Below, one piece after another: positions 31,688-42,440 of a stretch of 64,000 nucleotides of DNA. Every line of letters begins with the position of its first letter. Within the stretch, counting starts at the first letter, position 1. Made by a program: the position numbers and the translations under genes. The DNA is from Neodothiora populina. Lineage: Eukaryota. The DNA lies in the NCBI RefSeq assembly GCF_041146345.1, contig NW_027191410.1:1178001-1242000 (forward strand), given 5' to 3'. The notes under the pieces are model-generated. The model made no database searches. It was not told the DNA's origin and saw nothing but the letters and a program-made list of their open reading frames with translations.

Positions 31688-32756
31688 TTCTATTTTGCTC
31701 CCTTCCTCATCTCTCTTTTTGCTATCCATTACTTTTGTATTGCCTCCTCGCTCTGAGCACTTGCGTGCAAACAAGTACTGATGCCCCTCGCTACTCAAGA
31801 CCAGACGCGTGGGTTTTGCGTTCCGTGGAGTATAAGTCCAATACTCCTAATGAACCCAAAAAGCCCAGGAGACGAAACTATGTCAGAATTCCTCCTGGAC
31901 ATATAGATATATCCAGACTCGGCCTTTTTCCTAGCTATCCATAACCCTGCCTTCATTGCATTTACCGTGCTGTATCTTACACTGCATCGCTACCCCGGGT
32001 ACCTACGTATGTCCTGTCGCCCTCCCGCTTGGCTCTATCTTTCTTGGCCTTGTATGTCCTGTCGTGCTTCTGATGTGTCCTGTTGCATTACTTTGCTGTG
32101 ACTCATGTATGCGGCTTTATTCTATCATGTCCCATATGCACTCTTCTGTGGTCCTTTCTTGCACTCTTCACTATTGCGCGAAGGAGAACAAGGAATGAAA
32201 TCCACTCTCTTCGTCCAATATTGAACCTGTTGTTCTCAATAACTATATTCCTGCGTGACGAGATGCAAGCTGGGTGGCTTTTGACGTGCCCTGTCTAGTA
32301 GCTTGTCGCTCTTGTGCCATTCTTTCCATCTTGGTCATGATTCTCCATCGAGGGTTGTAGTAGCAGGCACCTTGCCGTAGCACAACCTACGATGTCCGAC
32401 ATCTGACACCCAGATCATTGCTCAATCACGCATTACTTTTCTCTGGTCTAGAATGGCAAGCAGGGCAAACAGTTGCAATTATTCGTGTATCTGAATTGAA
32501 TCATCGTTTCCCTCTTACCTAATTTACTCACCCATCTGAGTACTCAATGACTCGAAACTTTGATCTTCTTCTTTTTTGAATTGTACATTGTTATAACTCC
32601 TCCATCCCCTCGATGTCCTCCTCACTGACTAGACATCCATCCTCTTCACGTTGACTTCACATGCTTGTATGGGAGCGTAGTGAAGATCAATTGAAGAGGG
32701 AAAGAAAAAGAAGCTCCACGCAGTGGCGCCGCCCGCGCAGGGCACACACCGCCCCC

Positions 32757-35700
32757 TCACTCCTCAGGCTGACCAGCCCTCATGGTGCTCACCACCTCCT
32801 GCACCTTTTCGTCTGTTCCGAATTGGACAGCCCACGTCTCCATTGTCTTCCCATCTCCTCCACCGGCGACAATCATCTTCACTCTCTTCCCCAACGGCGT
32901 GTAAGCATCCTTGACTGCCTTCTTGGGCAGCAAGGAGAAGCTGAACATGAGGCGGCCAGAGGGCGTCATGCGCATCGCGGACCAGACCTTACCTGATTCG
33001 CGATCGCGTAACAGTCTGAACATGCCGTAGCCTTTGCTCTGCCAGCCTGTTGAGCCGTCGGCCTTGGCGAACTGGAAGGCTTTGGCTTTAGACTCGAACA
33101 CCACCTCGTTGGCCTCGAGCTCCTCCGGTGTCAAGGCGGAGAGATCAGTGGATGGCGGCGTGTCCTTGACTTCGTCGCTGGGCTCGTTGGAGTCGGCGGC
33201 AGCACTGTTGTTTGCGCTATTTTTGTTCGCCAATGCTGCATCGTCTGTGCGGTTGCCACCCGTTGCGGGGGTAGAGTCGCGTGTGGATGTAGGGCTGTTG
33301 TTGCCACCAAACACCGAAGAACCGGCAGATGCCGGTGTGCCTGCGTTGTTGCCGTAGAGAGAAGGCTTTCCGGCCGGCGAGAATATGGATGCGTTCAGAC
33401 CCGAGGCAGCAGCGCTGGCAGGCTTGCTCGCATCTCCAAATACACTCTTCGAGGCAAAGCTGAATTTGGGAGCAGGCTTGTCGTGAATACTAGTCGCGGT
33501 AAACCCTCCAAATTGGGGTGGAGCCGTGGCGTTGCCAGCAGCAGTGGCTGCATCAGAGGCCGCCTTGGCCGGAGCTCCCGACGGAGTCGTCGTGCCATCA
33601 CCGACATCACCAGCTTTCGTGGTACCGAATTTGATCGGGGTGTTCTCTTGCCCCTTCCATGTGTTGTCGCCCGCTGGGGACGTCGTGCTGCTGTTATTGC
33701 TAGCACCGAATATGTTGCCTGAAGTAGATGCACCACCAAACTTGAATGGTGTGCTAGCAGCCGCAGGCTTGTCACCGCTCGAAGGCTTGCCGATGCGGTC
33801 GAAGAGGCTGGCACCTGGAGTCTTTGCGGGCGTCGCATCCTCGTCAGCGTCAGCGTCCGCATCCGACTCTTCTTCGTCGCCATTGTCATCTGTCGAATCT
33901 AGATGTCCGAAGATGTTACCTGAGGCCGAGCTGTTGGAAGAGAAGCTCGTGGCAGCTGGCTTATCGTTGCTCTGATTCACAGACCTGAATGTAAAACCAG
34001 ATGCCGGCTTGTCAGTGGTCTTGTCTCCACCAACATAGAACACACTGGCAGCGGCAGGCTTAGCCGTAGAATCACCGGCCGGCTTGAATGTGAAGCGAGT
34101 TCCGGCGGCAGCGTCAGCGAGAGCCTTGCGCTTCGCAGCTTGCTGTTCAGCATCCTTCCTCTCCCACTCTTCTTCGTCTTCGTCAGAGTCCATGTCTTCC
34201 AATTTGCGCTTCTCGCGCTCTTTCTTTTCTTCGTCTGCGGCGTTAGCACCAAATGCAGACATGAAGTTGGGACCAGCAGCTCCAGAGCCGAACTTGGGCG
34301 GCGCGGCAGTTCCGCTCGCGGCAGGCTTGATAGCCTCGAAGGTGGGTTTCTTCAGCGATGCGCTTGCGGCATCTTCAAGGAGCTTCCTGCGCTTGGCGGC
34401 TTGCTCTTCCGCGTCCTTCTTCTCCCATTCGGCTTCGTCCTCGTCGGAGTCATAGTCTTCGGCCTTGCGCTTCTCCTTTTCCTTCTTCTCTTCTTCCGCA
34501 GCGCGGGCGCCAAAAGCCGACATGAAGTCGGTGGTGCCAGCGCTACCGCTTCCAAACTTAGGCAAAGAGAGAGCTGGAGCAGCTGAAGAAGCCGAGGGTG
34601 TGCTGACCTTGAATGGGCCAGAGGTGGTGGTTGAAGCATTTGTGGAAGGCTTGAAACTGCTAGTGGCAGTCTTCGGGGTCTGTGCAGCCGCAGGGGGCGC
34701 CGGAGGAGGGTTGTTGACCTTAGTCAGTGTGGCAAATGGGTTAGCCTTTGGTGTTTCTGAAGGTGTAGCTGCAACCTTGGGTGCGGCTGGAGTAAAGCCT
34801 CCAAAAGATGGAGTAGCTGGCGTAGCAGCAGGCGCTTTGGCCTTCTCGGGGGTGTTCAAGATGTCGTTGAACAGAGACGCGGTCTGAGAAAAGGGCTTAT
34901 TTGGTGATGACGTTGACTTGGAAAAGTCGATGGTGCCCTTGCTACGTTTGCTGGGGTCGTCCTTGCTGATCTCGTCGTCGGCCTTTCTTTTGTTTGTAGA
35001 GTTCGAGGCTGGGGGCGCAGGTGCTTGTGCTTGAACAGTGCCGTTGGAAGGTGCGGCAGGAGTGGCGGCGGACTTTGTGACTGCGTCAGGGATCGCACCG
35101 AGACGTGCGTTGTTCATGATCTTGTTGTATTCATCATAGTAACTGCGTATGACGTGTCCCCAGTCCTCAGAAGGATCTAGAGTGGAGAGATGCAGTTTGA
35201 ATGCTTCGTTGAGCAAGCGGTTCTTTGGGATGAGTTCCTTTGCAGGGTATTTCTTCAGAGGCTCAATTTGAGCCTTGGGAGTCATTGGTTGCGTCTTCTG
35301 AGGAGACGACTGAGTGGCTGGTGTGGCTGGTGTGAACAGCGGTGCGGATGGCTTGGCGGGGGTAGCAGGAGGAGGAAGTGCAGCTGGTGCAGATGACTGA
35401 ACTGCAGGAGCAAAGGGTTTGGCTGCAGGCATAGCCTGCTGAGCAGAGAAAGGTTTCTCTGCGGGTGTAGGTGGTTGTGCAGAGGATGGTTTGAATAGAG
35501 GGGTAGCAGCCTGAGCAGAAGATGGTTTGAACGCAGGGGTAGCAGCCTGAGCAGAGAATGGGTCGCTGGCAGGCGTGGCTGATTGTCCAAACGACGCGAA
35601 AGGCTGAGCAGCGGGTGTGGCTGCGGAGGCAGATGGCTTGGGAGTCGAAGTGCCAAACATGGAGTTACCAAGTCCATTGGCAGCAGGTTTGGGAGTTGAA

Positions 35701-38700
35701 TCCACAGTATTGACAGCGGCCGAAGCCGGTGCAGCAGGTGCGGGCTGCTGAGGAGTTGCGCGAGCTAGGTTAGCAAAAGGATTTGAGGGTGTGGGAGCCG
35801 CGGGTGTTGAAGGCGCCATAATTTGAGGTTTCGGCGTCTGAGGTTGAAATTTCGAGTTAGCATGGGCAGTGGTTATGAACGAAGATTCAGATTGCTGAAT
35901 GAAACGAATGGGTGGTCTGAACTGGGGCTCCTGGGGTGAAGGTGCCAGTCTGGAGTAGTAGAATCCTTGAGTGGTGATCTGGCTAAATATGGCCCTCTGG
36001 GGGATTTGGGAACGTGTCGGAGTGAGCATTGGGGCCAGGGGACGTGCTGGCATGCCTGTGAGAGGAGTGGAGACCGTAGGCGAGGGAGTGTTCTGATAGA
36101 TCCCCGCTGCAGCCCTCTGTGCCGTCAGAGCGGAGAACAGGGGAGAAGAATAGTTTCCCACTGCTGCAGAAGGAGTGGAAGGTGCAGGCGGGCCTGCAAC
36201 AGGATTGGAACCCGCGGGAGAAGGGCTGTTTTGCAAGCGTGCCGCTGCAGCTCTCTGTGTAGCTAGGGCGAGAAGACTAGAAGAAGAATTTCTCGCTGCT
36301 GGAGACGGTGTAGAAGCTGCCGGCAGGCCTGTAAGACGGTTGTTTCTCAAAGGTGAGGGACTGTTGTGAAAATTTACAGTTGCTGCTCTCTGTGCTGCCA
36401 GAGCAGAGAACATGGGTGGAGAATAATTTGCGTCTGCCGGAAAGGAAGCAGCAGGCTGTGCCATTGGCAACTGTTGCTGATTGACAGGCTGTGGGGGTTG
36501 ATAGTAATTGTGGTTGTTGGCCGCTGGAGCTGCTGTATCGAACTGAGCAGCGTGTTCCATTGGGGAATCTTGCTCTTGCTCATTGAAGGGCTGCACGGTG
36601 GGAGAGTGACTGTAATCATTGGCCGCTGGAGTCGCGGAATTGAATTCAGCAGCGTGCTCCATTGGCGAATCTTGCTCATGCTGATTGAAGAGCTGCAAGG
36701 TGGGAGAGTGACTGTAATCGAAGGCCACTGGAGCCGATGAATTGAATTCAGCAGCGTGTTCCATTGGCGAATCTTGATCATGCTGATCGAATGGCTGTAC
36801 AGCAAGAGAGGGATTGTAATCATCGACTCCTGGAGTGGCTAGAGAGAGCGCATCGATTTGTTCCATGGGCACATCTTGCTCATTGAAGTTATAATAATTG
36901 TCTGTTGGATTATTTTGGAGGAGGGCAACGTCCTGTGCCGTTGGCCATTGCCCGGCAGGAGAGTAACCGTTGCTGGTTCCCAGTGCAGGTCCTTGGGAGA
37001 GAGCGGGATTCAGAGCCATCTGCAGTCGCGATTCAACGCTAGTGGGAGAATAGTTGTGCGCAGTGGCTTGTGCAGGCTGCGAAAAAGGAGCATGAGGTGG
37101 AGCCAGTGGCATGGGAGTCTCTTGCGGAGCAAGATTCTGCATGGCAGCAGAGAAGCCGTAGCCGTTGGCTGGTGACTTTGCCGGAGATGTCTGCTGGGCT
37201 CGCGGAGATGGAGCAGCAGCGCGAGTGACAGCTGGGGTGTACTTGTAGACAATAGTCGGGGGAGGAGCGCGAGACCACTTGGGATTGGAAGCGCCCTGGG
37301 GCGTTGGCAGCGAAGGCCTGGGTGCCTGGGTCGAGACATTCGAGGACTTGGTGAGGAGATTGGTCACCTCTGCACCACGAGTAGGTGTGGGAGACAGGAC
37401 TGGCGGAGCAGTTTGGTTTGCAGGTGTAGCCAGGACCTGGTGAGCAACTTGGGGTGTAGGGGTGGTCAGGATCTGCTCGGCAGCTTGAGAGGTAGGTGTA
37501 GGTGATCGCGCGAGCAATGGTCTCAGGCCAGCAGGCCTTCTTTGGGGCAGTCTCTTCCTGGTGGGTGGCATGGCCAGCTCTGCAGGTGGGCTGGCAGCTT
37601 TCAGAGCTTCGACATAGGCATTGGCCTGGGAGATGGAACAGTGGCCGGACGCGTCCTAGGCGGCGGCGATTCCATGCTTCTTCAGGTCAAACCATTCTTC
37701 TGCCTGGTTGCGCCCAGGCCTCGCTTTCGTAGGTCTTTTGTCCTCGGTGGAGTCCTTGTCTTGCACCTTTGGGGTGGCAGGAACCACAGGGTCGGCGGCC
37801 AGGTTGAAGAGGGAGCCCTGGAAACCAGCACTCCTTGGCAACTTCCCGAAGGTGTCGAACTTGGTAAATGGATTGGCCAGTCCTTGGCCCTTGGTAGAAA
37901 ATTCAAATTTTGATGGGTCACTTACTGATGCGTTTGTGCTAGGCACTGGGTTTCTGACATATGAGAGCAAATTCCTCTGTGCCTCGATAGGCAGTTCCTT
38001 GAGGTCAAGACCAGCAAGGCTTGTAGCGCTCTGTTTGTTTACATTGTCAGTACGCGTGTCTAAAAAAAAAAAAAAGATAACAAATAAGAATAAAGAACAA
38101 ACTCACCTTATATTTCTCGTCAGACTCTCTGACAATTCTCTCCAGCTCATCCAATCTACCCTGCGAAGCGAGTCTGGGGCCGGCGTCTTCGATCTCCTTG
38201 ATCTCAGCATCGCTGATGGCCTGGTTGGCTGCAGGTTGACCGAACATGTTTGTGGTATTGGTCTGAGATTCTGTGGGTTTCGCAGGAGTGGTTGTGTTGG
38301 TGGCACCGAATGAGAAGGAGGGTGTCTTTGCAGGTGTCTCTGTAGCAGCTGGTGCACCGAAAGAGAAGGTGGGTGCAGTGCTTGGCTGTGATGGCTTTGC
38401 AGGAGTCGTCGAACCGAACGAGAACGAAGGGGTCTGTTCTGCGGGTTTGGGAGTGGAGGAAGAATTGAAGCTGACCACTGGAGTGTTGCTTGTGGCGGCA
38501 GCTGGAGTTGCTGCAGATGATGTTCCTCCGAAAGAGAAAGACGGAGCGCTCGCTGCAGGTGCTGGAGAAGCGGGCGCAGGCGAAGCTGGTTGTGTTCCAA
38601 ATGTAAAACTCTTGCTTGTCGCTCCGTTTGACGCAGATGCTGGTGCAGGTGCTGCTGCTGTCGCTCCGAAACTGAACGACGTGGGAGCTGCGGTCTTGAG

Positions 38701-39476
38701 AGGCGAAAAGGAGGGCGTGTTGTTTTGTGAGGCACCGAATCCACCGAAGCTCTGTGATTGACCCGAGAGACTGGCAAATGGATTGCTCGCTGGCTGTGAA
38801 TTCGATGTCGAAGCTCCGAACGTGAAAGAGGACGCGGTGGGTGGCGCGAATGCTGGTTGTTGCTGTGGTGGAGCAGGTGAAGGACTGAATGTGCTCGCGC
38901 CAAAGCTGTTCTGTGCTGGTGCAGGAGCTCCAAAGGGATTGTTTAGAGCAGGAGGAGCGAGGGGTTTGCTGGGTGAAGTTGATCGAGAAGAAGCGGCGCT
39001 GCCTCTCTTGAGTGGTTTGATGCTGTTTGAACAAGACGTGTGTCAGTTGTTGTTGCTGTTATTGTTGTTGTTGTTGTGGCTGCCTGGTTTCCCTGTTGAG
39101 CGGAACTCTTGCTCTACCAGCCACCTTCTTGTTCCGTCCACATGCCCCCTATGGTCATCGCTTTGGTCCCTATTTCTGAAACAAGGGTGGCTAGCAGAGT
39201 AGGTGAAGGTGATGTTGGCCCAGCCGTCTTCCTCGTTTGCTTTTGTTCCCTTCCACCTATTTCGACCTTGACCTTGACCTGGACCTTGACCTTGGTACCA
39301 ACGGACCCACCTTTACGTCTACAGACAAGTGACAGAAAAACCAAAAGAACAACATACCTTCTCTTAGCCAGCTGAGCAGCAGTGGCCTTACGCGGAGGGT
39401 CGTCCGGCGCATCCTTTGCCTCTGGTCCTCCATATCTCGCGCTTCCGCCCTGAGCGTCGGCGAATCTCTTGGACAT
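32757..39476 (-). CDS. NUP2: Nup2-like nucleoporin (NUP50-type N-terminus, FxFG repeats, C-terminal RanBP1 domain)
   Basis: Predicted exons 39476-39358, 39022-38107, 38030-37926, 35837-32757 give 1406 aa. RKATAAQLAKR/SIKPLKR N-terminal motif, SFSFG repeats, RanBD (VFESKAKAF, WQSKGYGMFRLL). Intron 3 is itself an in-frame ORF (see findings). Confidence 0.85.
36045..36430 (-). repeat. 135-138-nt (45-46-aa) tandem repeat x3 inside the Nup2 intronic ORF
   Basis: ALxxQRAA...N(S/T)PSP units at about 36106, 36244 and 36379. Confidence 0.8.
36500..36895 (-). repeat. 102-nt (34-aa) tandem repeat, 3 good copies plus 1 degenerate, inside the Nup2 intronic ORF
   Basis: QDSPMEHAA units anchored at 36552, 36654 and 36756 (exact 102-nt spacing). 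Confidence 0.9.
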
Positions 39477-40015
39477 GTCGAAGATGAATTAATGTCTTGT
39501 CGTTGACCCGGTGCTGATACTAATACTATGGATGATACACGCCCACACAAGCCAAGTAGTGGTTGGTCGTATACACAGGGTCGACTCCAAAGTCGGGGAT
39601 CGAGGAGGACGAGTATGGGTCGAAATGATGGGCAAAAACACCAAGAGGGTTTCGAGGTCGATATTATTAATACATGCGCGTCTGATCTGGTATACAAATC
39701 ATTCGTGCTCGATGATGCTTTGGTCAGGTGGCAAATCCCCGTTTGGATACACAGAGTATTAGGTACGGTTTAGTATCGTGTGTTTTTGTGATGCAAGACT
39801 TGCCCGTGTTGCACAAATCCGGCGTTGTTTCGTGCTCGCAACTGCCAAATTGTTGCGTCGGTGCTTCTGATCCATTGGTCCGTGCGTCATCTACTTGTGT
39901 CTCCTCCTCACACTCATCCTATGAGCTATATTGATTATACTGCAATGTACCTGCTTGTTCATGCTGTGCATTATAGTACTTTGTTGTATGAATTTCGACC
40001 TGTTCAAGCTTCCCT

Positions 40016-42440
40016 TCAGTCACTGTCAAGCTCGACAACCACCCTCTGCCTCTTGCGTGCTGCCTCGCCGTACTCAGCCCCTGCTCGCCCTCCCTCCCTA
40101 GCCATTTCCTCAACCAGCTGATCTGCCACAAGATCATCCTCACTCTGCTCATGAGCCCCTGTCGTCGCGCCAAACACCGCATCCAGATCTCTGAACTTGT
40201 GAGTCCCACGCTGTGCATCTTTCCTTGCCGCGTAGTCTGCTTCCGTGCTGCCAAACACCACATCTTGCATATCGTCACTGTTGCCATCGTCGTTATTGTC
40301 ACTGTCTTCTTCATCCTCGTCGCTCTGTGTCTGCACTGCGTTCAATCCTCCAGCAACCAGTGCAGACGCGGCAAACTTTTGCGTGAGACCCTTCATCTCT
40401 CTTGATTTTCCCGATCCTGCAGGCCTTCCTGGTCCCCTGTGTCCTTTCTCGCGCGCTCGTTTCGCCCTTCTCATGGCATCCAGGTGTTTTGCTTGCCGAG
40501 GTGATATGCTGATCTCACCTCCAAACTGTGTGTGGGAACCGACGTCGACGTTCTTGAACTCGTGTAGATCAAGCTGTTGCACACGGTTCTCACCCCAGAA
40601 CCACGTCTTACCAACTCGACGAATGATTCGAGGATCTTGTGCCGCACCTTGTTCCCGACTGGCCATCGCTCCTTGTAAGCCGAGCGAGAGGTCTGCCCGC
40701 ACTGTGTCTGTTTCTGTCGCCTTCTCCTTGCCCTTCCCTTTGCTATTGATAGGTATGAAGCTTGCGACTGGGGGAAGTTCTCGTGCACTTTGTGGAAACC
40801 AGAGCATCATTGCCTCGTCCTCGTAGCATCGTCCGAGCACTCTTTGAAATGGCATCTGCATGCGCTGGCTAGGTTCGTGGCTGTAGAACCAAGATCCATA
40901 GCCATCCAGTCCCTGGGGTAGCTCTCCGGACTGTGCGTCGATCGGTGTCTTGCTCAGCCCATGAGCCTTACGTGCATCTGTTGTATAAACAATGCCTGAC
41001 ATGTGCACACACGAGAACCATGGTAGGGCTTGTCTGTCGTCATCATCATCGCTGTCATCTGACTCTTCGACGGAGTCAATGTCCAAGAACTTCAATTTGA
41101 TGGCCGTGATCTTCATGACATCCTTGACATGGGTTTGGTCTTCATCGCCGGGTGCTGGCATAAGGCGGACAGCATCTCCGACCACAAGGAGCTCCGCGCC
41201 TAGATAGATGCCTTTACAGAAAATCGTAGCAGCAGGATAGACGCCTTTGAAGTGGTACTTTTTCAGCAGAGAAAAGGATGAGGCTGCTCCTATAGCATTT
41301 GAAATTGTTTGGTGAACGTCTGTTGTCTTGTGTAAGAACTGCTCCGAGAAGACGAAAGGTCGAATCTGTCGCAGAGGCAGATAGGTAGATCTCTTGCTCC
41401 AGAGCTTGTCGTCTTGACCTATCCGTGGCATGGGTTCGACGCGGAAACCTGAATAATTGACAGGAAACTCCTTGCCTTCGTCACTGATCAGGTCTTCAAG
41501 TGTTGCTGGCTCTACGCAAGCTTCCGCGACCACTCCTGCTTCCCAGCTAGGCCGATGGGTTGACCAGGACATAGACTGTTGATCCCAGATCCTGAAGATC
41601 CCATCGGTCTCATCCAATGAGATGGTTTGATAGTCGTGGAGTTTGCGGACAAAAATGACCAGCTCGCCCTTTCGTGGCAGCCATCTTGGTTGTTTTCGCA
41701 ACTGCTCCAAGTGCTGGGGAAGAGTTTCGTTCTCTATACACCAATCGATTGAGTCCGGTTCTTCGATAGATTTACTGAGCCCTTTACTACCAGCCTCTTT
41801 CAGCTCTGCTACTAGACGCCGGTAAATATCAGAAGTCCCTTCTTCATCGACCATCTCAGAAAAATCCTGCTTTGGGGCGCGAAACGTTGGAGGAGAGGGG
41901 AAAACCTGTCGCTCAGCTGGCGCTTGCACTGGCTGAGGTGGAGGTGAAATTTGACGAACACCCATGGTTGGTTGTGCGGTTGCTGTTCGTCCTAGAGAAG
42001 AGTGCCCGCTTGGTCGTACACAACCTTTGCATTGACAGCTACTGCTGCCGTTCTTCTGAAGACTGACAAAATGGTCATAGAATTCTGGCACCGAGCGAAA
42101 AGCATAACCTGAGGGATGTCCATACACGTAACTGTCGAGCTATTTGTTTGCTCAGCAGGTTTTCGATCGTACACGTGACGTGACTTCTACTTACGTGTTT
42201 CATGTCTTCACAAAACCTGCCATAGAGTCTATACCCCGTAGGTAGCCTTTCGATGGCATAGGAGAACCCCGGCTTCGACTCGTTTCTGTCACTCATCCAT
42301 CTGTTGCCAACACTTGTGCGGAACCTTTCCACCCTACTGGTATCGAGAGCGCTCACAGTGCTGTCATGACCTGGCCATTTGGACGCGTTACCATCAGAGT
42401 AGTCCGTGATGGGAATCACTTGATTGATTACTGGGGGCAT
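40016..42440 (-). CDS. clr2: Cryptic loci regulator 2 (Clr2)-like silencing protein
   Basis: Exons 42440-42195 and 42139-40016; SDG, LPTGYRLY, DSYVYGHPSG..FRSVPEFYDH, CQCKGC, PRKGELV, GIYLGAELLVVGDAVRL. Confidence 0.85.

Follow-up and report, generated by a model that had tools for sequence, protein, structure and literature searches.

A long coding-like intron with a single in-frame stop in a Nup2/NUP50-type nucleoporin gene of Neodothiora populina: a probable exitron-type segment conserved within a lineage

Exitrons are described, in the available text of Marquez et al. (2015; PMC4484396), as segments whose retention brings no stop codon, whose splice sites are weaker, and whose exitron-containing mRNA is the major form. 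The same text cites the statement that stop-free introns with a length that is a multiple of three are generally selected against, which makes a site where such an insert stays open in several fungal genera well suited as a natural test case. The question on which such a case bears is whether fungi vary the disordered modules of FG nucleoporins by exitron-type splicing, and the gene concerned here is a nucleoporin of an essential pathway. Two familiar concepts, the intronization of exons and the precise loss of introns, also bear on segments of this kind. Among the literature listings searched, none was found that ties exitrons to ascomycetes or to fungal Nup2. In this report, we focus on the third intron of a Nup2/NUP50-type nucleoporin gene of Neodothiora populina, which is located on the minus strand of the window, that is, the whole stretch of 64,000 nucleotides that was analysed, and which comprises four exons and three introns. 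We regard intron 3 as probably a lineage-conserved exitron-type intron, whose long isoform has been cut in N. populina by a nonsense codon of probably recent origin. The gene is laid out as follows.

39358..39476, minus strand: exon 1, with the ATG at 39476 and the basic N-terminal motif ...KATAAQLAKR; RNA contig joint 39022/39358, in agreement with the public protein P0001
39023..39357, minus strand: intron 1, 335 nt, GTATGT..CAG, absent from the RNA contig of run X2
38107..39022, minus strand: exon 2, FG-repeat block (FSFG/FTFG), from translation, P0001 and the RNA contig
38031..38106, minus strand: intron 2, 76 nt, GTGAGT..CAG, T-rich, GC 0.276, absent from the RNA contig
37926..38030, minus strand: exon 3, 35 codons (SATSLAGLDLKELPIEAQRNLLSYVRNPVPSTNAS), a motif conserved in relatives; P0001 and RNA contig
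35838..37925, minus strand: intron 3, phase 0, 2088 nt long, with a single TAG among its 696 in-frame codons; exitron-type, coding-like
32757..35837, minus strand: exon 4, including the stop TGA at 32759-32757, with acidic and FG-like blocks as well as the Ran-binding domain at the C terminus; RNA contig

Homologues of the gene product (n = 144) are mostly annotated as RanBD1 domain proteins, and belong to the Dothideomycetes and Eurotiomycetes. The Ran-binding (RanBP1) domain, encoded at about 32778-33116, was recognized as PF00638 (E 4.4e-7; 30.6 bits, above the cut-off of 23.2) over residues 1514-1626 of a frame of 1632 aa; it is the sole Pfam match in the gene pieces scanned, with nothing in intron 3, and FSFG, FTFG and FGA repeats are legible in exons 2 and 4. 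The Pfam scan, which was made on gene pieces with the exon 1-exon 2 join outside them, returned no PF08911 match, and the precomputed domains of P0001 consist of PF00638 alone. The Aureobasidium orthologues P0008-P0011 and P0013 have PF08911, and the N-terminal residues of P0001 align by eye with them. P0001, the publicly annotated protein of 1406 aa, is identical to the spliced form that the first-pass annotation had derived from the letters of the window, and the splice junction of intron 3 falls after its residue 380.

That annotation had drawn attention to intron 3, and the positions it gave on the minus strand for the donor, the GCTAAC, the acceptor, the TAG and the ATG at 37571, as well as the length of 2088 nt and phase 0, are all correct. 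Within the intron and at its ends, the following elements are found.

37920..37925, minus strand: 5' splice site GTAAGT, read in frame as the codons Val-Ser; donor TCA/GTAAGT (the slash marks the cut), with the G at 37925
37659..37925, minus strand: intron part ahead of the TAG, 89 codons, with a peptide motif (NPFTKFDTFGKLP...GSLFNL) common to the relative P0002
37656..37658, minus strand: sole in-frame stop, TAG, at intron codon 90; in the sequence, the X1 DNA contig and the X2 contig
37569..37571, minus strand: first in-frame ATG 3' of the TAG, from reading of the sequence; it would start a 1604-aa form
36517..36823, minus strand: three tandem repeats of 102 nt, or 34 codons (..QDSPMEHAAEFN..); TRF period 102, 3.0 copies, 82% matches, 0 indels
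36027..36428, minus strand: imperfect repeat in three copies, 46, 45 and 43 codons long (..FSALAAQRAA..NSPSP..), with length differences of whole codons
35856..35861, minus strand: branch-point-like GCTAAC, read in frame as Ala-Asn, ending 18 nt ahead of the acceptor end
35838..35840, minus strand: 3' splice site CAG, read in frame as Gln, with the acceptor end at 35838

Between 38102 and 32757, the reading frame is interrupted by the TAG at 37658-37656 alone, and exon 3 is continuous into exon 4. As computed from this frame, a product ending at the TAG would have 469 aa, one made by read-through would have 2102 aa, and one initiated at the ATG at 37571 would have 1604 aa; these are the sizes that had been given before. 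The base following the TAG is G.

The open frame of intron 3 is not a product of chance. The intron has 1, 13 and 19 stops in its sense frames and 8, 35 and 32 in the antisense frames; base composition predicts 22.0 stops where frame 0 has 1 (Poisson P(<=1) = 6e-9), in line with the earlier statement that a single stop in 696 codons is far below expectation. Mononucleotide shuffles of the intron (n = 2000) had a mean of 22.3 stops, with a standard deviation of 4.5 and a minimum of 8. Its GC content is 0.555, versus 0.49 in intron 1 and 0.276 in intron 2, and its second codon positions contain 45% C and 10% G, the same as in exon 4. The codon-usage score of frame 0 is +0.120 bits per codon, as against -0.158 and -0.256 in the other frames, with exon 2 at +0.128, and frame 0 is the top-scoring frame in all 12 sliding windows of the intron. 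In intron 1, this score is below zero in every frame, and the three frames hold 3, 1 and 6 stops within 335 nt. The copies of the 102-nt repeat have pairwise dN/dS values of 0.37, 0.53 and 0.39, which rest on small counts.

Database-wide searches with the encoded peptide were negative. No match was found with the 606-aa peptide that follows the TAG in a word-indexed search, and none at E <= 0.001 with phmmer when the 731-aa read-through peptide, carrying X at the stop, was compared with 1.84 billion representatives. Exon 3 together with the peptide ahead of the TAG, searched against longer proteins, retrieved only the organism's own protein, and the ESM Atlas, queried by features, gave no usable match for the intron peptide. 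Rfam returned no match in 35700-38100 on both strands at E <= 1.

Splicing of intron 3 is directly observed. Two runs come from the same sample, namely X1, a DNA run, and X2, an RNA-derived run, which is filed as 'DNA?' but has a contig that lacks all three introns; none of the runs listed as containing this sequence is registered as RNA. This contig, of 4817 nt and with a word depth of 19.3, carries the joints 35837/37926, 38030/38107 and 39022/39358 with canonical ends, and no X2 joints beyond these three introns were reported. The 37926/35837 junction, which had been predicted from the splice signals, is thus in use, as the main RNA contig carries its exact joint; the absence of shared letters at this 2088-nt joint speaks against an artefact of reverse transcription. 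The segment 37925-35838 is an authentic spliceosomal intron, and its removal from the dominant mRNA yields the 1406-aa protein. The TAG occurs with 0 differences in the X1 DNA contig (record 8) and in an X2 contig (record 13, 37186-37773) and, being present in both DNA-run and RNA-run contigs, is not a base-call error; X3 and X4 contributed short pieces only, none of them across the TAG. The first-pass annotation had named relatives with a closed frame, or an unused junction together with a sense codon at the TAG, as grounds for abandoning its view; the relatives keep the frame open, the junction is used, and two libraries confirm the TAG. For N. populina, the annotated spliced model is therefore right and the TAG is real.

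Contigs of X2 also lie within intron 3, at 36050-36351, 36349-36853, 36841-37123 and 37186-37773, with depths of 2.3-3.1 and 0 differences, and could derive from pre-mRNA, from contamination by DNA or from a transcript in its own right. None of the X2 contigs bridges an exon-intron border. X2 contig cover is missing from introns 1 and 2 and from the ends of intron 3 (35838-36049 and 37774-37925), and these holes are uninformative on retention. Taking contig depths as the contig-wide means they are, and hence as a rough guide (19.3 vs 2.3-3.1), the spliced form dominates in the single RNA data set.

The intron frame contains 528 in-frame GT..AG pairs whose excision would remove the TAG, and consensus-like signals accompany only two of them, the annotated 2088-nt intron and a 1809-nt alternative with its acceptor at 36117, which is accompanied by a CTGAC. 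A short nested intron that removes the TAG was considered and rejected, as only the 2088-nt and 1809-nt pairs had such signals and no such RNA joint was seen.

Thirteen relatives carry an in-frame insert at the same phase-0 site, with 141-317 visible residues; they belong to the Dothideales and include several Aureobasidium species and other relatives, and were drawn from protein and ORF collections, which are biased toward open frames. Two of the 13, P0003 and P0015, begin inside the insert, so that an upstream interruption is possible in them, and there is close kinship among the 13, as in P0012, P0016, P0022 and P0024, whose inserts are 84-96% alike. The insert is seen end to end in 11 relatives; there it has 184-280 residues and is open from exon 3 to exon 4, with a stop in 0 of 11. 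The insert starts with VS in all 11 relatives with a visible start, ends with Q in 13 of 13, and has [A/T][N/D] 8-9 residues ahead of the final Q, again in 13 of 13. Judging from the codons GTAAGT, GCTAAC and CAG of the window, these residues in relatives known from their proteins would correspond to splice signals. P0013 matches P0012 except that it lacks precisely the 190-aa insert, and the public models of this Aureobasidium gene measure 1474 and 1284 aa; annotators handle the insert inconsistently across relatives, as an exon in some and as an intron in others. In the available text of PMC4227064, transcriptomes are given for var. pullulans and var. subglaciale only, and the spliced A. melanogenum model P0013 is not known to have RNA behind it.

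Among six Aureobasidium sequences compared, the inserts are 70-96% identical and the flanks 76-100%, and the indels are of whole codons only. The peptide encoded by the N. populina intron resembles the insert of P0002 in its 5' part (23 of 51 residues identical, E 4e-12) and near its 3' end (12 of 22, E 5e-5); the exons of the two proteins are only about 45% identical. An HMM of the Aureobasidium-clade inserts did not score the inserts of N. populina, P0002 and P0003 above controls, which consisted of 20 shuffles and a reversal for each. Between the Aureobasidium clade and N. populina, P0002 and P0003, the evidence of homology thus comes from position, phase and signal residues only, and not from the peptide. 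A MAFFT alignment that placed 'W..GIAAA[TAG]' opposite 'WQ.GIAALQSRLD', with the TAG replacing Gln, was dropped, as the insert HMM did not exceed the controls. A metagenome scan gave eight loci. In L002, which is A. pullulans-like DNA and the only one with the exon-3 motif, exon 3 reads directly into exon 4 with no room for an insert; L001 starts past the insert site, and the other loci are distant relatives without a recognizable exon 3.

The sequence of events that we propose starts from a low-complexity, probably disordered coding stretch whose splice signals double as in-frame codons. The ancestral gene could have made both a short Nup2, by splicing, and a long one, by retention, and the retained form would be translated in the relatives. 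In N. populina, the insert would have grown to 696 codons through in-frame repeat expansion and then have gained one nonsense codon, probably recently. The absence of a stop in all 11 end-to-end relatives makes the TAG look like a lineage-specific nonsense change and not a conserved gate, and, as it lies in frame upon retention, N. populina itself has no encoded long isoform. An unspliced N. populina mRNA would yield only an N-terminal fragment of 469 aa, which lacks the Ran-binding domain. Under the general rules of nonsense-mediated decay, a retained mRNA with such a stop is prone to degradation, and this would probably be the fate of the N. populina form. The A. pullulans lineage would have lost the insert cleanly.

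Several other readings of intron 3 have to be weighed against this one. The most serious is that intronization of coding sequence gave rise to an ordinary, constitutively spliced intron 3, with its open frame a relic and no retained form translated in any species. The dominance of the spliced form in one RNA data set, with no contig across an exon-intron border, and the strong splice signals suit it, as do an A. pullulans lineage that manages without the insert and an insert peptide that has no detectable family and is not recognizably conserved between the two clades. A relic, however, is expected to decay, yet 184-280 codons have stayed open in 11 relatives with whole-codon indels only, the Aureobasidium inserts are almost as conserved as the flanking exons, peptide motifs of the N. 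populina intron recur in P0002 with exon-like identity, and the N. populina frame has a single stop instead of the expected 22; we therefore consider this reading unlikely, although it deserves to be kept in mind. At the opposite end, the segment could be part of one long exon, with the TAG an error of base calling or assembly and the intron a device of gene prediction to dodge it. The coding-like character of the segment would suit this, but the exact junction occurs in an RNA-derived contig and the TAG shows 0 differences in the DNA-run and RNA-run contigs, and even a strain-specific mutation would still be real; the chance that this explanation holds is negligible.

The remaining readings assign a present role to the TAG or to the frame behind it. 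The frame could still be used through an internal transcription start 5' of the ATG at 37571 or through a TAG-skipping splice form, giving a truncated or alternative Nup2 (e.g., 1604 aa). In its favor, 606 stop-free codons follow the TAG; as 162 of 5454 single-base changes would create stops there and zero were gained, fewer than about 0.056 neutral substitutions per site have accumulated since the TAG arose, or selection has continued. The intron-internal X2 contigs extend only up to 37773, and the in-frame alternative acceptor at 36117 has its CTGAC. A recent TAG, however, accounts for the open frame equally well; the reported RNA joints are those of three introns only, good signals among the 528 pairs belong to the annotated and the 1809-nt intron only, and pile-ups of starts or ends are not readable from contigs. 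Nothing was found to back the 1604-aa internal-start form put forward earlier, and continued use of this frame seems improbable to us. More improbable still is programmed read-through or recoding of the UAG, which would make a 2102-aa protein from unspliced mRNA, as the first-pass annotation had imagined with its 'gated stop'. The evidence for it is circumstantial, namely a frame that is open on either side of a single TAG; the stop is not conserved (0 of 11 end-to-end relatives have one in the insert), it is followed by G, no Rfam element lies in 35700-38100, and the unspliced mRNA is a candidate only, with no contig across an exon-intron border. The 2102-aa form thus gained nothing from the analysis, and the isoform switch of which it was part is likewise unsupported, as no contig crosses the border and the stop is absent from all 11 end-to-end relatives. 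A bolder view of the exitron-type intron is that Dothideales Nup2 contains a long-lived dual-use segment, whose splice signals, being in-frame codons (Val-Ser ... Ala-Asn ... Gln), would let the cell make either a short nucleoporin or a longer form that carries an additional disordered module, and that the TAG of N. populina acts as a switch between the full-length protein and a regulated, possibly dominant-acting 469-aa FG fragment. If this were true, the fragment would keep the importin-alpha-binding end and the conserved intron-encoded motif without the Ran-binding domain, and would not be waste; we offer this as speculation that is doubtful at present. On the practical side of annotation, gene predictors will handle such segments inconsistently, as in the Aureobasidium models that differ by exactly the insert (1474 vs 1284 aa).

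Compared with exitrons as described, intron 3 is similar in lying within coding sequence, in having flanks in the same frame and in a length that is a multiple of three (2088 = 3 x 696). Its GC content is above that of the ordinary introns of the gene and its codon score is exon-like; the frame is preserved in relatives, splicing excises an internal, probably disordered segment, and an ancestral coding origin is plausible. It differs in that retention in N. populina meets the TAG, whereas the no-stop feature holds in the 11 end-to-end relatives, and in that its signals are consensus-like (GTAAGT/CTAAC/CAG, as read by eye) and the spliced form dominates the only RNA data set. With its 2088 nt, intron 3 is also far longer than the other introns of the gene (335 and 76 nt). 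As a retained intron with a premature stop, the unspliced N. populina mRNA would resemble the known class in ending translation at codon 469 and leaving about 4.9 kb beyond the stop; ordinary retained introns, however, have stops in all frames, as does intron 1, whereas intron 3 has 1 in 696 codons. With intronization, intron 3 shares a coding-derived segment enclosed by splice signals which also serve as codons, and with precise intron loss, the clean absence of the segment from an A. pullulans-like genome; the change may have run in either direction, from exon to intron or through coding use gained by an intron. Finally, the gene resembles Nup2/NUP50-type FG nucleoporins in its basic N-terminal motif, its FG repeats and its C-terminal RanBP1 domain, and differs from them in the insert at the exon 3/4 site, which matches no Pfam family and was seen only in a subset of Dothideales-like relatives.

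The gene of the Nup2/NUP50-type FG nucleoporin lies on the minus strand and comprises four exons, the third and fourth of which are separated by the segment of interest.

Features of the Nup2 gene and of its third intron (window positions)
39476-39358, minus strand, exon 1
39022-38107, minus strand, exon 2
38030-37926, minus strand, exon 3
37925-35838, minus strand, intron 3 segment, 2088 nt, phase 0
from 37925, minus strand, GTAAGT, 5' end of intron 3
37658-37656, minus strand, TAG, sole stop of intron 3 in the frame of the flanking exons
35861-35856, minus strand, GCTAAC within intron 3
ending at 35838, minus strand, CAG, 3' end of intron 3
35837-32757, minus strand, exon 4

The frame of the flanking exons is open from 38102 to 32757, bar the TAG at 37658-37656, and the other two sense frames of intron 3 hold 13 and 19 stops, with 8, 35 and 32 in the antisense frames. 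Base composition predicts 22.0 frame-0 stops, and in two thousand shuffles of the intron the count averaged 22.3 and never fell below 8 (P(≤1) ~6e-9). The phase-0, one-stop segment with the donor and acceptor proposed in the first-pass annotation is thus confirmed on the sequence, and the product sizes it gave for spliced, retained, stop-recoded and internally started forms (1406, 469, 2102 and 1604 aa) are arithmetically correct.

Contigs of two sequencing runs of one N. populina sample, X1 and X2, were compared with positions 32500-39700. A 13,894-nt contig of X1 spans the entire gene with 0 base differences, and this run behaves as genomic DNA. X2 is on record as 'DNA?', and its contig of 4817 nt (word depth 19.3) joins 35837/37926, 38030/38107 and 39022/39358; since it lacks all three introns, with canonical ends, it is RNA-derived. 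The segment 37925-35838 is a genuine intron that is spliced out, and the 37926/35837 junction, as had been predicted, is used. No letters are common to both sides of the 2088-nt joint, which argues against a template-switch artefact of the kind that the available part of PMC8240250 discusses for some human exitrons. The spliced form and the publicly annotated protein, P0001 (1406 aa, 'hypothetical protein AAFC00_000711 [Neodothiora populina]'), have the same sequence. Both the X1 contig and an X2 contig covering 37186-37773 contain the TAG and show 0 differences, and its presence in two libraries of one sample excludes a base-call error; a strain-specific mutation is possible, being compatible with both libraries of this one sample. 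A long exon carrying a sequence error is refuted by the X2 splice joint together with the TAG in both contigs. Two further runs, X3 and X4, consist of short pieces only, all of them outside the TAG position. Four listed X2 contigs lie within intron 3, covering 36050-37773 in pieces at a depth of 2.3-3.1 (a mean over each whole contig, and hence a rough guide), and none of the four crosses an exon-intron border; their source may be pre-mRNA, an mRNA that retains the intron, an independent transcript or traces of DNA.

Several side observations concern these runs and the surroundings of the gene. The X1 contig shows 3 gaps against the window. Repeats were skipped in the comparison at 38051-38087 (a T-run in intron 2) and 39044-39086 (a CAA-rich microsatellite in intron 1), which are possibly length-variable tracts. 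X4, which carries another organism label and belongs to another study, contains short contigs 100% identical to intron 3 at 36164-36440, 36952-37024, 37115-37184 and 37580-37648, with a word depth of about 20-220, that then continue into unlike sequence, and its exon cover is a single piece at 39403-39511; this pattern may come from a reduced-representation or adapter-bearing library. Immediately 3' of the Nup2 stop codon (TGA, 32759-32757) lies a GC-rich tract of ~40 nt (32700-32744) to which the ends of several further genomic contigs of X1 align at 85-95%. The summed word depth in its bin is 204 vs 30 elsewhere, with many loose ends at 32702-32747, and the tract looks like a short dispersed repeat. 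Directly upstream of Nup2, a 707-codon open frame on the minus strand (40019-42139), ending ~540 nt before the Nup2 ATG, is probably the neighbouring gene.

Intron 3 resembles coding sequence over its full length. Its GC content of 0.555 exceeds that of introns 1 and 2 (0.49 and 0.276), and its second codon positions hold 45% C and 10% G (45% and 13% in exon 4). A codon-usage score trained on 12 further long frames from the window gave +0.120 bits/codon for frame 0 and -0.158 and -0.256 for the other frames, next to +0.128 for exon 2, +0.216 for exon 4 and negative values for all frames of intron 1; frame 0 scored highest in 12 of 12 sliding windows. The intron also contains three in-frame copies of a 34-codon repeat (TRF period 102, no indels), between which dN/dS is 0.37-0.53 on small counts, and a second in-frame set of 46, 45 and 43 codons whose lengths vary by whole codons. 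Pfam and Rfam gave no match in intron 3.

The C-terminal part of Nup2 has 144 homologues, of which the top ones were read by eye and all 120 listed were scanned with a motif pattern, the pattern scan standing alone past about P0024. Among these 120, the exon-3 motif (L..LP..AQ..LL.FVR...) is followed by an extra in-frame stretch, the insert, in thirteen proteins (P0002, P0003, P0005, P0006, P0007, P0009, P0011, P0012, P0014, P0015, P0016, P0022 and P0024). In 11 of the 13, exon 3, the insert (184-280 residues) and exon 4 form one uninterrupted frame. The coding character of the intron is real and extends to relatives. P0003 and P0015 begin within the insert, and their upstream part may be interrupted. 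Several, P0002, P0007 and P0016 among them, were translated directly from ORFs on genomic contigs, with intron 2 also read through, and the insert is therefore open at the DNA level. It starts with Val-Ser in all 11 visible starts, ends with Gln in 13/13 and carries Ala/Thr-Asn/Asp 8-9 residues before its end in 13/13; the window counterparts of Val-Ser, Ala-Asn and Gln are the splice signals GTAAGT, GCTAAC and CAG, and from these protein residues we infer that relatives keep the same three signals. P0013 (A. melanogenum CBS 110374, 1284 aa) corresponds to P0012 (1474 aa) with precisely the 190-residue insert taken out. Identity among six Aureobasidium sequences that carry the insert is 70-96% within it vs 76-100% in its flanks, and Aureobasidium insert indels are exclusively whole codons. 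In L002, an Aureobasidium pullulans-like locus on a metagenome contig (10001-13709), exon 3 runs directly into exon 4 with 30 nt between the matched parts, and the insert is therefore absent from that genome, with which the A. pullulans protein P0008 agrees; this looks like a clean loss at the splice borders. The L002 Nup2 keeps intron 2, with an in-frame stop.

N. populina and P0002 are ~45% identical in their exons, and intron-only comparisons align the P0002 insert with the first 89 codons of the intron at 23/51 identities (E 4e-12) and with its last part at 12/22 (E 5e-5); the middle parts of the two are not alignable. A profile of eight Aureobasidium-clade inserts scores those of N. populina, P0002 and P0003 no higher than their shuffled or reversed versions, and database-wide searches with the intron peptide gave no match. 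At the level of sequence, the insert peptide shows no recognisable conservation between the Aureobasidium and N. populina clades, and what is common to the whole group is position, phase, open frame and signal residues, with no shared domain. Within the Aureobasidium clade, a core of roughly DG..DE.K.A.AA.D....WQ.GI..LQSRLD, plus PQTYTHLP.FS and N/SVEG motifs, is seen in P0005, P0006, P0007, P0009, P0011, P0012, P0014, P0015, P0016, P0022 and P0024, persisting even in the distant P0006, and suggests that the long form of Nup2 in these fungi includes a functional peptide.

The isoform switch with a gated stop proposed in the first-pass annotation found no support. We favour a recent nonsense change as the origin of the TAG, since all 11 relatives whose insert is visible whole lack the stop; the N. 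populina insert probably grew to 696 codons and then gained it. Stops would arise from 162 of the 5454 single-base changes possible in the 606 codons that follow the TAG; that no further stop is present there implies fewer than ~0.056 neutral substitutions per site after the TAG arose, or selection that continued. Unspliced mRNA would yield a 469-aa fragment without the Ran-binding domain; with ~4.9 kb of sequence following its stop, such an mRNA would probably be subject to nonsense-mediated decay.

That intron 3 is a pure relic, its long form translated nowhere, is unlikely, as the open frames of many lineages are hard to reconcile with it. Use of the post-TAG frame through an internal start or an alternative junction is very improbable: no joint or start pointing to it was seen, and just one alternative in-frame intron, 37925-36117, has good signals. 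Programmed read-through of the TAG is hardly credible for a stop that is not conserved. Intron 3 is best read as an exitron-type intron that derives from coding sequence, preserves the frame, has a length divisible by 3 and would lie within a disordered region of this FG nucleoporin; several Dothideales lineages would have retained it at a single site, and one would have lost it.

The accessible literature on Neodothiora populina covers taxonomy, an aspen canker and a sister yeast species, and in the accessible full texts on fungal or ascomycete exitrons and Nup2 intron retention no description of such a segment in fungal Nup2 was found. Unlike classical exitrons, as presented in the available part of PMC4484396, intron 3 has consensus-like splice signals, its spliced form dominates, and the N. 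populina segment contains one stop codon. The same part of that source describes introns that are stop-free and a multiple of 3 in length as rare in eukaryotes, which makes the persistence of one at the Nup2 site notable.
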